NCBI GenBank assembly: GCA_963798915.1
Contig: CAWCVB010000001.1
Span: 64,001 to 128,000 of the forward strand
Source of the DNA: an uncultured Gemmatimonadales bacterium
GTDB taxonomy: Bacteria; Gemmatimonadota; Gemmatimonadetes; Gemmatimonadales; GWC2-71-9
Length of the DNA: 64,000 nucleotides
Direction of reading: 5' to 3'
Shown: piece after piece, positions 9,857-58,384 of the stretch
How positions within the stretch are numbered: position 1 is the first letter of the stretch
How the letters are laid out: each line of letters opens with the position of its first letter
Position numbers and translations under genes: made by a program
The notes under the pieces: generated by a model
The model's database searches: none
What the model was told of the DNA's origin: nothing
Seen by the model: only the letters and a program-made list of their open reading frames with translations

Positions 9857-9913
9857 CTCACGCGGCTGAGAGCCGCTGCTCGGCAAATGTCGCCTGCGGC
9901 GACAATGCCTGAG
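9857..9913. repeat. Dispersed hairpin repeat (family C), inverted copy of 25852-25908
   Basis: Reverse complement ctcaggcattgtcgccgcaggcgacatttgccgagcagcggctctcagccgcgtgag matches 25852-25908. Confidence 0.8.
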
Positions 9914-9930
9914 GCAGATCTCACAGCAGG

Positions 9931-10020
9931 TGTCATCCAGAGGCCGCACCGCGGCCGAAGGATCTACTGGTCCGGGTCCCGACGCCGGTGAGAAGGTCCT
10001 TCGCTTCGCTCAGGATGACA
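9931..10020 (-). repeat. 90-bp GTCAT-type REP-like element, single copy of the array unit at 50160, inverted
   Basis: tgtcatccagaggccgc...cggccgaaggatc...tccttcgcttcgctcaggatgaca. Confidence 0.9.
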
Positions 10021-17873: not shown

Positions 17874-18086
17874 CGGTCGACGGTCGACGGTCGACGGTCA
17901 ACGGTCAACGGTCAACGGTCAACGGTCAACGGTCGACAAGGCTCGCCCCATCGTCACCCCGGTGCAAACCGGGGTCCATGAGAGACTCGGGCACGGCAAC
18001 GACGCACAGATGAGCCCTCATCGATTCCCGCGTGCGCGGGAATGACGGTCCGACAAGAACCTGCCCGCCCGTCCTGCCCGTCCTGT
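17874..18086. repeat. Heptamer run (CGGTCRA)n + CGTC-type REP-like element (17952-18047) + 9-mer run
   Basis: About 9 heptamers, then cgtcaccccggtgcaaaccggggtccatgag...gattcccgcgtgcgcgggaatgacg, which is homologous to 5107-5202. Confidence 0.85.
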
Positions 18087-48720: not shown

Positions 48721-50061
48721 ATGCCCACCAAGCCCCTCTCCCGTCGCACCTTCGTCGGCACCTCGGCCGCCGCGGCCAGTGCCTTCACCATCGTGCCGCG
48801 CCATGTGCTGGGTGGCCCCGGATTCATCGCGCCGAGCGACAAGCTCAATGTGGCGTGCATCGGGGTGGGCGGCATGGGCCGGAACGACGTCGACGGGATG
48901 AGCGGCGAGAATATCTACGCGCTGTGCGATGTGGACTGGAAGGCCGCCGAGGACGCCTTCCGCAGCTTTCCCAAGGCCAAGCGGTTCAAGGACTATCGCG
49001 AGCTGTTCGACAAGGAAGCGCAGAACATAGACCTCGTCACCGTCTCGACGCCCGACCACAGCCATGCGCCGGCCGCCATGCTCGCGCTCAAGCACGACAA
49101 GCCGACCTACACGCAGAAGCCGCTGGCACGGACACTCCACGAAGTGCGTGCACTGGGCGACGAAGCGCGAAAGCGGAAGCTGCACACCCAGATGGGCAAC
49201 CAGGGTCACGCCGGTGACGGCATGCGGGTGCTGCGCGAGATGGTCGAAGCCGGACTGATCGGCACCGTGCGCGAGGTGCACTACTGGACCAACCGCCCCA
49301 TCTGGCCCCAGGGACTGGACCGCCCCACCGAGCTGCACGCGCCACCCTCGACCCTCGACTGGAATCTCTGGCTCGGTCCCCGTCCCGATCGGCCCTACAA
49401 CCCGGCCTACATGCCGTTCAAGTGGCGCGGGTGGTGGGACTTCGGCACCGGCGCGCTGGGCGACATGGCCTGTCACGGCATGGACGCGGCCTTCTGGATT
49501 CTGGACCTCGGCTTCCCCGATCGCATCATCCCGGAATCCACCGAGCTCTACACCGAGTCGGCACCCAAGTCGGAGCGCATCGAATATCAGTTCGGCGCCA
49601 AGGGGGGACGCGGCCCCATCAAGGTGGTCTGGCGCGACGGCGACCTGCGCCCGCCCCGTCCGGTGGGCTACGCCGACGACGCGGACTGGCCCTTTGCCGA
49701 TATCGGTGGGCAGCTCTGGATCGGCGACAAGGGTGGGATCCTGGCCGGCATCTACGCTGAAAAGCCCCGGCTGCTCGACGAGAAACGGCAGAAGGAGCTC
49801 GAAGCCAATCCGCTGCCGCAGAAGTATCCCCGGTCCAAGGGCGTGTACGCCGAGATCATTGATGCGGCCAAGGGTGGCCCGCCGGCGCTCTCCACCTTTG
49901 ACGGCCACGCCGGCGCACTGACCCAGATGGTATTGCTCGGCTGCCTCGCGGTGCGGGCGGGCAAGACGCTGGAACTGAACAGCAAGACCGGCATGATTAC
50001 CAACGTGACGCTGCCGGAAGAGTGGGTGAAGCCGGGGTTCAGGGACGGGTGGATGGTGTAG
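48721..50061 (+). CDS. Gfo/Idh/MocA family oxidoreductase, Tat-exported
   Basis: SRRTFV; GVGGMG, STPDHSH, QKPL, QMGNQG, GTGALGDMACH. Confidence 0.9.
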   Translation: MPTKPLSRRTFVGTSAAAASAFTIVPRHVLGGPGFIAPSDKLNVACIGVGGMGRNDVDGMSGENIYALCDVDWKAAEDAFRSFPKAKRFKDYRELFDKEAQNIDLVTVSTPDHSHAPAAMLALKHDKPTYTQKPLARTLHEVRALGDEARKRKLHTQMGNQGHAGDGMRVLREMVEAGLIGTVREVHYWTNRPIWPQGLDRPTELHAPPSTLDWNLWLGPRPDRPYNPAYMPFKWRGWWDFGTGALGDMACHGMDAAFWILDLGFPDRIIPESTELYTESAPKSERIEYQFGAKGGRGPIKVVWRDGDLRPPRPVGYADDADWPFADIGGQLWIGDKGGILAGIYAEKPRLLDEKRQKELEANPLPQKYPRSKGVYAEIIDAAKGGPPALSTFDGHAGALTQMVLLGCLAVRAGKTLELNSKTGMITNVTLPEEWVKPGFRDGWMV

Positions 50062-50067
50062 GAGAGA

Positions 50068-50150
50068 GGTCGTCGGTCGTCAGTCAGTCAGGTCGACGGT
50101 CGTCGGTCGTCGGTCGTCGGTCGTCGGTCGTCGGTCGTCGGTCGTCGGTC
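50068..50150. repeat. Heptamer run (CGGTCGT)n
   Basis: About 7-8 perfect copies at 50097-50150; inverted counterpart at 51472-51498. Confidence 0.9.
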
Positions 50151-50159
50151 TGCGAGATC

Positions 50160-50992
50160 TGTCATCCTGAGCGAAGCGAAGGATCTACCCGCCCTGATCC
50201 GGAAGCAGCCAGGCCGATCCTTCGGCCGCTCCGCGGCCTCTGGATGACAGCAGGTGACGTCCACGGGCCGACGCCGCGCCGATGTCATCCTGAGCGAAGC
50301 GAAGGATCTACGCGCCCCGATCCGGAAGCAGCCAGGCCGATCCTTCGGCCGCTCCGCGGCCTCTGGATGACAGCAGGTGACGTCCACGGGCCGACGCCGC
50401 GCCGATGTCATCCTGAGCGAAGCGAAGGATCTACGCGCCCCGATCCGGAGGCAGCCAGGCCGATCCTTCGGCCGCTCCGCGGCCTCTGGATGACAGCAGG
50501 TGACGTCCACGGGCCGACGCCGCGCCGATGTCATCCTGAGCGAAGCGAAGGATCTACCCGCCCTGATCCGGAAGCAGCCAGGCCGATCCTTCGGCCGCTC
50601 CGCGGCCTCTGGATGACAGCAGGTGACGTCCACGGGCCGACGCCGCGCCGATGTCATCCTGAGCGAAGCGAAGGATCTACCCGCCCCGATCCGGAAGCAG
50701 CCAGGCAGATCCTTCGGCCGCTCCGCGGCCTCTGGATGACAGCAGGTGACGTCCACGGGCCGACGCCGCGCCGATGTCATCCTGAGCGAAGCGAAGGATC
50801 TACCCGCCCCGATCCGGAAGCAGCCAGGCCGATCCTTCGGCCGCTCCGCGGCCTCTGGATGACAGCAGGTGACGTCCACGGGCCGACGCCGCGCCGATGT
50901 CATCCTGAGCGAAGCGAAGGATCTACCCGCCCCGATCCGGAAGCAGCCAGGCCGATCCTTCGGCCGCTCCGCGGCCTCTGGATGACAGCAGG
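50160..50992. repeat. Tandem array of seven 90-bp REP-like palindromic elements with identical 33-bp linkers (123-bp period)
   Basis: gtcatcctgagcgaagcgaaggatc starts at 50161, 50284, 50407, 50530, 50653, 50776 and 50899. Each unit ends gatccttcggccgctccgcggcctctggatgaca. Confidence 0.97.
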
Positions 50993-51068
50993 CGCTCCGC
51001 CGTCGCTGCGCTCGAATGCCACCATGGCCCTTTGACACCGGTGGGACGCCCGCCGGCCATGCTTCGGC

Positions 51069-51371
51069 ATGGCGAAGACCTATTACGTCTATCTCCTGGC
51101 CAGCCACTCACGTGTCATCTATATCGGCGTGACAAGTGACCTGCGGCGACGCATCTGGGAGCACCGGCATGGCATGCGGAGCGGCTTCGCGTCCCGTTAC
51201 CGAGCAACCCATCTGGTCTACTTCGAAGCGACCAATGATGCTCGGAGCGCGATCAGGCGTGAGAAGGAGATCAAGGGTTGGTCGCGCCGCCGCAAGATCT
51301 CGCTGATCGAGACGGCGAATGCCGGCTGGCTCGACCTCGCCGCCGACTGGTTTGGACCTGAGGGAGGTTGA
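51069..51371 (+). CDS. Stand-alone GIY-YIG nuclease family protein (100 aa)
   Basis: YYVYLL...IYIGVTSDLRRRIWEH...AIRREKEIKGWSRRRKISLIE; conserved Tyr, Arg and Glu present. Confidence 0.92.
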   Translation: MAKTYYVYLLASHSRVIYIGVTSDLRRRIWEHRHGMRSGFASRYRATHLVYFEATNDARSAIRREKEIKGWSRRRKISLIETANAGWLDLAADWFGPEGG

Positions 51372-51382
51372 TCCCCGGGAAA

Positions 51383-51498
51383 TATCATTCCGAGTGCAGT
51401 AGGGAATCTTACAGGCCAGGTTCGGACATCGGGCGAGCAGATCCTTCGCTACGCTCAGGATGACACGCTTCGACGACCGACGACCGACGACCGACGAC
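51383..51498. repeat. GTCAT-type REP-like element (51383-51465) followed by an (ACGACCG)n run
   Basis: tatcattccgagtgcagtagggaatct...agatccttcgctacgctcaggatgaca. Confidence 0.85.
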
Positions 51499-53337
51499 TC
51501 ACCTGTCCGCCCGTCCGCCCGTCCGTCTGTCCGTCTCCCACACCTCCACCCCGCCCCCGCTCCCCCCTAAGAGGAGTTCCGGCGTCCCGTCGCCGTCCAT
51601 GTCGGCCACCGCGGGAATGGCGTTGAACGAACCTTGCAGCACAAACGACTGGTCGAGCCGGAAATCCGGCGCGGTGCGGGTGCCGCCATTGCGATAAAGC
51701 TTCACGTCTCCATTCTCGTTGGCAACCAGCAGGTCCAGGTCACCATCGCCATCGATATCCAGCAGCGCCGGCGCGCTGCGCCGCCCACCCGATACACCGG
51801 CATACTCATCCGACACCAGCGCAAATCTGGGATGCTGCCGAGTGCCGTCGTTCCGGTAGAAGTTGATGCTGCCGGACCCCTCGCCCACGAAGAGATCGAG
51901 GTCGCCGTCGCCATCGACATCCGCCAGCGCCGGCGTGGCGTTGCTGCCGCGAGTGAGCGTGACCACGGCGCTGTCCGCCAGCTCGAAGCGCGACGCGCCA
52001 GCGGCTCCCGTGTTCCGGTACCAGGCCAGAACGTTACGCCAGGTGCCCAGCATCATGTCGGGCCGCCCGTCGCCATCGAGGTCACCCAGCGCCGGCGCGT
52101 AGTTGAAGGTGCCACGGATGGCGAGCGGACCGGCATCGTACCAGTCGGGATGGGTGGCGCTGCCCCGGTTCTCGAAATATTCCAGCGCGCCGGTCCGCGG
52201 ATCATGCTGCGAGAGGCGATTCCCCAGAATCAGGTCGAGGTCGCCGTCCCCATCCACGTCCGCCACTGCCGGCGCGCTCTCCGCACCGATGTCCAGCGAC
52301 GAGAGATAGGTGGTGCTCCGCAGCGCGAAGGCCATGGGCGCCGTCTGCTCGAGATAATACAAGTTGCCGATTGACGTGGTATTGGCGTTGAAGGCGCCGC
52401 CCAGGACGCCCATCAGCACATCCAGATCGCCATCGCCATCGAGATCGCCCACCACCGGCGCGTTGTAGCCGCTGGTGCGGAGCGGTGCGCCCGGCGGGAA
52501 TGACACCGAGTCCTGTCCGATGAGGGGCGACGGGCAGGTGCCGGTGTTCTTGAGCCAGAGCAGCCCCGGCTCGAAGTAGTCGCCCCAGAGGATGTCAGGA
52601 TCGCCATCCCGATCAATGTCGGTGACGATCATGGTGTTGGCGCCATGCATCGAGGGCGCCGGCCCCACGTTGCCGATGATCTGGATGTGCTGGAAGGTGT
52701 CGCTCACGAAGTGAAAGACCGGAATGCCACGCTCGTTGAGCGACGCTGCCCGGTAGTGGGTGACCATCCCGCTGGTCCGACCCATCAGCAGGTCGAGCTT
52801 GCCGTCGCAGTCGATGTCCACCAGCTGGGGAATGTTCTGCCGATCGTTGAAGATGGCTCCGCCCTGGTCGTCCCGCAGAGTGTCAGCGGCAAGGACGTAC
52901 CGCGCCGCCTTGGCCGTCCCGTCGTTCCGGTAGTAGCGGATGTAGCTGAACGGCGTCTCCGCCACCAGGTCGGCGTCGCCATCGCCATCCACATCCACGA
53001 ACCGGCTCCACTCCCCGATGTCGAGATCCTGGTAGCGGTCACTGCGCCAGGCGAACGCCGGCGTCCTGGCGCTGCCAGTGTTCTCGAAGAACATCTGGCG
53101 ACCGGTGTATTCCTGGAGGAAGAGATCCAGGTCGCCATCGTCATCGATGTCCACCAGCTGGGGCCGGGGATTATTGAGACCGCCGAGAAAGGGGAACTGG
53201 TATGGATGGCCGGCGGTGTCATGAACGGGAAAGGCGTCCACCACCCGCGTGAAGACCGCGTCCCGGCGACTTGGCATCGCGGCGGCAAGGAGAATCCCTG
53301 CCGCCGCGGTGAGGAAGAGTGGAAAACGCGACGTCAC
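51499..53337 (-). CDS. Secreted FG-GAP/VCBS repeat beta-propeller protein
   Basis: Signal peptide; more than 10 DxDGDGDxDL repeats. Confidence 0.9.
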   Translation of the reverse strand: MTSRFPLFLTAAAGILLAAAMPSRRDAVFTRVVDAFPVHDTAGHPYQFPFLGGLNNPRPQLVDIDDDGDLDLFLQEYTGRQMFFENTGSARTPAFAWRSDRYQDLDIGEWSRFVDVDGDGDADLVAETPFSYIRYYRNDGTAKAARYVLAADTLRDDQGGAIFNDRQNIPQLVDIDCDGKLDLLMGRTSGMVTHYRAASLNERGIPVFHFVSDTFQHIQIIGNVGPAPSMHGANTMIVTDIDRDGDPDILWGDYFEPGLLWLKNTGTCPSPLIGQDSVSFPPGAPLRTSGYNAPVVGDLDGDGDLDVLMGVLGGAFNANTTSIGNLYYLEQTAPMAFALRSTTYLSSLDIGAESAPAVADVDGDGDLDLILGNRLSQHDPRTGALEYFENRGSATHPDWYDAGPLAIRGTFNYAPALGDLDGDGRPDMMLGTWRNVLAWYRNTGAAGASRFELADSAVVTLTRGSNATPALADVDGDGDLDLFVGEGSGSINFYRNDGTRQHPRFALVSDEYAGVSGGRRSAPALLDIDGDGDLDLLVANENGDVKLYRNGGTRTAPDFRLDQSFVLQGSFNAIPAVADMDGDGTPELLLGGSGGGVEVWETDRRTGGRADR

Positions 53338-58102: not shown

Positions 58103-58384
58103 TGGTCGTCGGTCGTCGGTCGTCGGTCACGGGTCGCGGGTCGCGGGTCGCGGGCCGCGGGTCGCGGGTTACGGGTCGCGGGTCGCGGGTCGTGGGTTGC
58201 GGGTCGAGGGTCGCGGGTCGAGGGTCGGGGTCGCGGGTCGCGGGTCGTGAGACGTGTCATCCTGAGGTCGCGCAGCGGCCGAAGGATCTACTTGCCCGCT
58301 CCGAGAACGGGGCCAGAAGATTCCTCGCTACGCTCGGAATGACACATCTCTCACACGACCCACGACCCACGACCCGCGACCCCT
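58103..58384. repeat. Long (GGGTCGC)n run + 90-bp GTCAT-type element (58255-58344) + inverted (CACGACC)n run
   Basis: About 20 heptamers on the left; tgtcatcctgaggtcgcgcagcggccgaaggatct...gattcctcgctacgctcggaatgaca; 4 inverted heptamers on the right. Confidence 0.9.

Follow-up and report, generated by a model that had tools for sequence, protein, structure and literature searches.

The closest described systems are two. Single-domain GIY-YIG proteins whose genes are flanked by hairpin repeats, known as NTS or SRM, make up the Ssn family (Chenal 2025, PMC11893778). According to the main text of that paper, the members tested cut only single-stranded DNA, a few bases upstream of the hairpin tag, and not double-stranded DNA; they are described there as the only reported site-specific ssDNA endonucleases. 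The role shown in Neisseria is to limit the integration of incoming DNA, and the same text already draws the IS-like layout NTS-ssnA-NTS and the parallel to REP/BIME repeats and their transposases. Four Ssn proteins only are assayed there, all with plain-stem hairpins or close variants. The second system is the CGTC-tagged REP superfamily, which in the text of Di Nocera 2013 (PMC3733652) comprises four families with continuous stems of 8-9 bp and loops of 4-5 bases, and for which that text knows no dedicated transposase.

Here we describe a locus from a window of 64,000 nt, the whole stretch of DNA analysed, to which all positions refer unless another contig is given. The source genome is designated G000, and the relatives compared at this site are G001, G002, G004, G005, G008 and G009. 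The locus at 50068-51498 is that of a putative Ssn-type nuclease with an SRM-like hairpin missed by the published pattern. Its features are collected in Table 1.

Table 1. Features of the locus and its two neighbours, in window coordinates.
Feature	Position	Strand	Description
Tandem array	50160..50987	.	7 head-to-head hairpin dimers of 90 bp and six identical 33-bp linkers, period 123; units start at 50160, 50283, 50406, 50529, 50652, 50775, 50898
Unit 1, left arm	50160..50186	+	TGTC tag, 5-bp stem, tandem G·A mismatch, 2-bp stem, GAA triloop
Unit 1, spacer between arms	50187..50215	.	Family consensus resembles coding 3' end of a same-genus ssn gene
Unit 1, right arm	50216..50249	-	TGTC tag, stem, G·A mismatch, longer inner stem, GGA triloop (from sequence and fold)
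Linker, example after unit 1	50250..50282	.	33 bp
Degenerate arm	51001..51023	-	Just upstream of nuclease gene; similar remnant at same place in G005
ssn-type gene	51069..51371	+	100-aa single-domain GIY-YIG nuclease; Y8, Y18, R28, E65 intact
Downstream dimer	51383..51465	.	Left arm decayed; right arm intact and facing gene
Heptamer run, left	50068..50150	.	Generic intergenic repeat of G000
Heptamer run, right (inverted)	51471..51498	.	Generic intergenic repeat of G000
Left neighbour	48721..50061	+	Gfo/Idh/MocA oxidoreductase, context only
Right neighbour	51499..53337	-	FG-GAP repeat protein, context only

The first-pass annotation of this DNA had reported seven near-identical 90-bp units with identical 33-bp linkers, ending about 75 bp upstream of an intact 100-aa GIY-YIG gene, with a degenerate half-unit at 51001-51021 before the gene, a further family member at 51383-51465 behind it, and unrelated convergent genes on either side. 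All of this is borne out. TRF finds a period of 123 with 6.8 copies, 98% matches and a score of 1624, and direct comparison finds 0-2 substitutions between units, one of them common to units 2 and 3 and another to units 1 and 4; five of the seven units can be told apart. The linker is the same in all six array copies and has no further occurrence in G000. From the end of the last unit (50987) to the ATG (51069) the distance is 81 bp, or 76 bp from the TRF end (50992). The half-unit and the downstream member are both present, and the oxidoreductase and FG-GAP genes do converge.

The same annotation had called the unit a palindrome with GCGAAGC in each copy. It is a repeat, but not a single palindrome: two different TGTC-tagged hairpins stand head to head about a spacer of some 30 bp, each reading from its tag through a 5-bp stem, a tandem G·A mismatch and a short inner stem to what is usually a triloop. 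The left arm of unit 1 recurs, identically built, in all seven units. GCGAAGC belongs to the left arm and is missing from the right, and the loop varies across the family. As single-stranded DNA, one array unit folds far better than its shuffles (z -3.35 and -3.24), while the downstream dimer folds no better than shuffles (z -0.03 and 0.31). Rfam gives only 2 weak matches, both on the heptamer run and far below gathering scores, and thus no RNA family; a consensus scan returned 0 promoters and 0 terminators. Reading frames of 337 and 339 aa that run across the array were regarded as probable by-products of its 123-bp (41-codon) period.

Three smaller observations concern the edges of these features. 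A -10-like hexamer (window 51033-51069) stops 5 bases short of the ATG, as it does in G005, and a ribosome-binding site is not evident; together these suggest that the transcript of the ssn-type gene may be leaderless, although the promoter consensus scan does not call the hexamer. The 5 bases after the right tag (window 50249-50256) run in inverted orientation compared with the flank that this dimer subfamily usually has, a putative micro-inversion fixed before the array expanded. The last codons of the FG-GAP gene (window 51499-51540) cross a short repeat tract to the heptamer run, and the gene stops earlier in the relatives.

The repeat is dispersed in G000, with 36 dimers at 28 loci; the arm pattern has 36 exact matches there and the reversed pattern 0. 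Of 40 relatives, 10 carry the arm pattern; these all belong to the same family and, as kin, are not independent. By a crude parser, 45 of the 96 distinct arms of G·A type that lie near homologues have a three-base loop, which is GNA in 35; for G000 the figure is 9 of 17. GCGNAGC is described as a stable DNA mini-hairpin in the abstract of PMC13037366, and such stability fits recognition of the repeat as ssDNA, although the loop is not invariant.

Other repeats of G000 were noted in passing. A second palindromic family flanks the best match to a Y1 (IS200-like) transposase (G000:C2:384349-384693), and the same family directly follows many 88-bp dimers (for example window 9860-9931, C1:195613-195680), giving composite mosaics. 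Plain-stem hairpins of the canonical SRM type are present at window 17952-17979, C2:627048 and C2:758121; a gene of the plain-stem hairpin branch was not found in G000, which is 85% complete. A further dimer lies in long inverted heptamer runs at window 58104-58343 and overlaps an oxidoreductase ORF at its 5' end as called.

The 100-aa protein is a putative Ssn-family nuclease. Its only domain is PF01541 (E 1.3e-13), and its AlphaFold model (pLDDT 89) has 1zg2 as best fold match. Like Ssn proteins it consists of a single GIY-YIG domain under 150 aa with the catalytic Tyr/Tyr/Glu. For the family limit of E < 1e-10 to SsnA we used the gonococcal counterpart as a proxy, not meningococcal SsnA itself: the 94-aa product of the N. 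gonorrhoeae gene is 46.5% identical over 101 columns (E 4.9e-27). That gene lies among exact NTS copies and has Y6, Y17 and E64 at SsnA's numbers, which align to Y8, Y18 and E65 here; a tblastn search of 7.3 Gb matches an NTS-flanked gonococcal gene at E 2e-17. Identity to E. coli YhbQ is 29.8%, and FastTree groups the protein with the Neisseria protein against YhbQ with support 97, on one long outgroup and 97 columns. NCBIfam has no family match for the nuclease. It is the only ssn-type gene found in G000 (85% complete), and its nearest named relatives are Gemmatimonadales. Homologues are patchy in same-family genomes, numbering 0-6 per genome and present in 15 of 24; among the 40 relatives, all 15 genomes with a match belong to that family. 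Two of the N. gonorrhoeae records encountered (L129, L131), each of 2.17 Mb, are filed as plasmids and have the size of chromosomes.

Association between nuclease and hairpin was assessed in the 80 best of 509 GTDB loci, using a relaxed tagged-hairpin pattern designed after the homologue flanks had been inspected. A tagged hairpin lies within 300 bp of the homologue at 55 of these 80 loci, on both sides at 34 and inward-facing at 29, and 25 have none by the relaxed pattern. Hairpin density is 3.03 per kb near the homologues versus 0.19 per kb at distances above 1 kb in the same loci, a 16-fold difference. The enrichment within 300 bp that the first-pass annotation had put forward as a check is thus found, and the part of its proposal that makes a GIY-YIG nuclease rather than a Y1 transposase the partner of the repeat is supported. 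Y1 transposases were considered as partners and rejected: none of the 3 matches in G000 has such an arm within 1.5 kb.

The published SRM pattern finds a hairpin within 300 bp at 13 of the 80 loci. It has 0 matches in 50068-51498 and 2 elsewhere in the window; because the locus fails to match this degenerate pattern, we file the repeat as SRM-like and not as SRM. Tagged hairpins do occur on both sides of the gene as well as dispersed through the genome, as expected of SRM. Different paralogues within one genome have different hairpin types (G001, G004, G005 and G009, all of the same genus), which argues against genome background as the cause of the association. On a protein tree of 187 rows (99 typed, 88 untyped; two duplicates and weak or partial matches excluded), 55 G·A-type and 44 plain-stem labels require 4 changes versus 32.7 when shuffled, at weak support over 97 columns; since kin share hairpin labels, this amounts to clustering and not to proof of co-evolution. 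The window protein is placed, at weak support, among the G·A-type loci and outside the branch of Neisseria and Azospirillum proteins. In G009:C148 (L115, L029), the same oxidoreductase gene is followed, 1.9 kb further downstream and in opposite orientation, by a nuclease gene of another branch with another hairpin type.

Both neighbours are kept in five relatives (G001, G002, G004, G005 and G008), and G009 has another gene order. In G005 the site lacks an array; the nuclease gene is there at 80% identity, accompanied by a single short hairpin, by the upstream remnant seen in G000 and by a downstream dimer. G008 and G002 lack the nuclease gene and each carry a single dimer, the two being of different types. 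In G004 there are inverted heptamer runs alone, with nothing between them, and in G001 (L114:2148-2507) a gene for a 119-aa four-helix-bundle protein (PF05635, E 4e-38) replaces the nuclease cassette and sits between inverted short-repeat runs. With five different kinds of content in six genomes, the intergenic site is a turnover hotspot. In the comparison with an empty site suggested by the annotation, the array is missing in 5 of 5 syntenic relatives, and genomes as distant as these yield no clean pair of filled and empty site. Between G000 and G005 the nuclease gene has dN 0.126 and dS 1.21 (70 synonymous sites), similar to the FG-GAP gene with dN 0.125 and dS 0.86; by these rates it is under purifying selection and as old as the split of the two genomes, and such selection fits either host use or long-term maintenance of an element. 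Given 0-2 differences between units, no array in the relatives and a gene divergence like that of its neighbour, the gene is old and the array a recent addition. With G005 and G002 as sisters (96/98), the nuclease gene must have undergone either at least one loss or two gains.

The annotation had further described the whole cassette as bracketed by inverted heptamer runs. The runs are present, yet G000 has 629 of period 6-10, among them 42 of the type seen at the locus and 21 inverted pairs within 1.5 kb. A run of heptamer type lies within 150 bp of 24 of the 28 dimer loci, and only 46 of the 629 runs have a dimer nearby. As ends of an element they were rejected on the genome-wide count and on the inverted runs of G004 that enclose nothing.

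With sequence, family, association and order of ages as described, we consider it probable that an Ssn-family gene and its cognate hairpin have long resided between the convergent genes, and that one gene-less dimer was recently duplicated in tandem. By analogy with the Neisseria and Wolbachia enzymes, the nuclease would bind the tagged hairpin in transient single-stranded DNA, as during replication, repair or uptake, and would cut a few bases 5' of the tag. The tags of a dimer face inward, which would place the cuts immediately beyond its two ends, one on each strand. GIY-YIG enzymes hydrolyse DNA and cannot rejoin it, and spread would therefore need host recombination, which may mend the cuts in a way that leads to turnover and spread of the family. 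That the nuclease spreads the repeat is plausible, with indirect support from the hairpin enrichment beside homologues and from the likeness of spacers to gene ends described below. The array most likely formed by slippage or unequal exchange, to which the repeat family is prone genome-wide. Because no arm matches the SRM pattern and the protein falls outside the gonococcal branch, both activity and specificity are extrapolated.

A stronger reading, largely compatible with long residence and recent duplication, adds active mobility: the arm-gene-arm units would be autonomous mobile elements, and the gene-less dimers MITE-like internal-deletion derivatives of them, still moved by nuclease and host. 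We regard it as possible, and the less likely course. By the strict G·A pattern, 16 of 186 loci are tight arm-gene-arm units with an interior of 311-402 bp. When 22 distinct G000 spacers are reduced to a consensus over their last 22 nt, 17 of these 22 nt agree with the coding end (W-F-P-E-T-G-E-stop) of one such unit, L017, from a same-genus genome. In anchored comparison the spacers match this end at a mean of 13.2 of 19 positions versus 5.9 when shuffled (highest null 7.15), and the spacer of an array unit at 14 of 19; the opposite end of the spacers agrees with the beginning of L004 and L017 at 5.8 and 5.1 of 11 positions versus about 3.0. Gene-less copies thus share both inner ends with gene-carrying units, as MITEs do with their parents, whichever derived from the other. 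The patchy homologues and the changing content of the intergenic site also speak for mobility.

Against it, L017 was picked as the best of 16 units, and the spacers are one family, so the match to gene ends counts as one observation; by local alignment only 3 of 26 spacers are significant, with p 0.35-0.73 for the array units. As that one family-level observation, the spacer pattern agrees with what a gene-carrying unit would be predicted to leave after internal deletion, and a half-dimer captured at a gene end and then read into would look alike. The dimers show no target-site duplication, the longest direct repeat at their flanks being at most 2 bp in 29 of 32, 3 bp in two and 4 bp in one. 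The nuclease gene here looks vertically kept, and we know of no joining chemistry for the GIY-YIG fold. Stated in full, and held tentatively, the proposal is that arm-ssn-arm units are minimal elements (~400 bp) that would move by a hairpin-guided hydrolytic ssDNA nuclease plus host repair, without transposase or target duplication; that the dimers, the amplified unit included, are internal-deletion derivatives retaining the last nuclease codons; and that G·A hairpins identify a large branch of the family which the published motif fails to capture.

The first-pass annotation had also allowed that the nuclease drives local amplification; repeated cuts in the linkers followed by repair synthesis would be one such route. 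The largest arm-containing array of G000 does lie beside its only ssn gene (a chance of about 1 in 28 loci), a tandem repeat of a tagged unit is found near 23 of 186 homologue loci (up to 5.5 copies, the window array being the largest), and the predicted cuts fall in the linkers. We nevertheless judge the idea unlikely: a diffusible protein has no reason to act locally, G005 has the gene and no array, and G000 has 4 other arm-containing tandem duplications, of 2-3 copies, far from its sole nuclease gene. These make amplification a habit of the repeat family that needs no adjacent gene. Most likely, then, the 7-fold array reflects this general tendency to slippage or unequal exchange, and the system does not depend on it. 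Long tandem arrays that lack these arms also occur in G000, at C17:46843-47438 (68 bp x 8.8) and C1:234144-235068 (150 bp x 6.1).

An artefact of assembly seems very unlikely. No sequencing run was found with reads across the array, one run (share 0.08) having been examined; set against this are the distinguishable units with variants shared in pairs, the position of the array inside a 334-kb contig, and the further arrays of the same repeat family in G000. Also very unlikely is a chance meeting of a general repair nuclease with a terminator-like repeat that is abundant and tends to accumulate where genes converge. Although the repeat is dispersed and fills the same spacer without the gene in G008 and G002, the enrichment extends across many phyla and comes with inward orientation, paralogue-specific hairpin types and the published biochemistry of Ssn relatives (main text of PMC11893778).

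The pairing of nuclease and hairpin as such is already published, in that same text, as the Ssn/SRM system (PMC11893778). Our literature search, with most subscription journals outside its reach, found no paper on dimers derived from gene-carrying units and none on the G·A-type hairpin, of which the figures and three supplements of the Ssn paper may show examples. It likewise found no paper joining GIY-YIG with repetitive extragenic palindromic, no follow-up on Ssn, and cd10448 in one paper only. What the locus offers is a candidate natural enzyme-substrate pair from another Ssn branch with a differently built hairpin, which would widen the toolbox. It also shows that the published motif undercounts the system (13 versus 55 of 80 loci). 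The likeness of dimers to gene-carrying units bears on what spreads the CGTC-type repeats described in the text of PMC3733652, and makes that question testable. The array and the heptamer runs themselves carry little weight.

Compared with known systems, the locus resembles REP, REPIN and BIME repeats with their RAYT in that an enzyme gene is flanked by its hairpins, gene-less dimers are dispersed, and tandem mosaics occur. It differs from a RAYT REPtron in its GIY-YIG enzyme and its TGTC rather than GTAG tag, and no Y1 gene of G000 is accompanied by these arms. RAYT are HUH, Y1 transposases, and GIY-YIG enzymes are hydrolytic with no covalent tyrosine intermediate. UPF0213/YhbQ and Slx1-like GIY-YIG proteins have the same fold as the window protein (1zg2, Slx1), which is 47-49% identical to the Neisseria protein versus only 30% to YhbQ. 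With the CGTC-tagged REPs, as described in the text of PMC3733652, the repeat shares a TGTC/CGTC/CCTC tag, an AT stem start, head-to-head dimers and a place between convergent genes; unlike families 1-4 of that text, it has a 5-bp stem, a G·A mismatch pair, an inner stem and a triloop. The closest likeness is to Ssn (SsnA, cd10448) as presented in the main text of PMC11893778: a single-domain GIY-YIG protein of ~100 aa with catalytic Tyr/Tyr/Glu, and (C/T)GTC-tagged hairpins that stand on either side of its gene and are scattered elsewhere in the genome. The SRM pattern published there misses the arms of this locus, whose stems are interrupted by a tandem G·A mismatch and which mostly close with a triloop; the protein falls outside the branch of the gonococcal enzyme (weak support, 97 columns). 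The near-perfect 7-fold tandem array has no counterpart in that main text, where the word 'tandem' occurs 0 times, and the host here is a Gemmatimonadales-like soil bacterium, not a symbiont.
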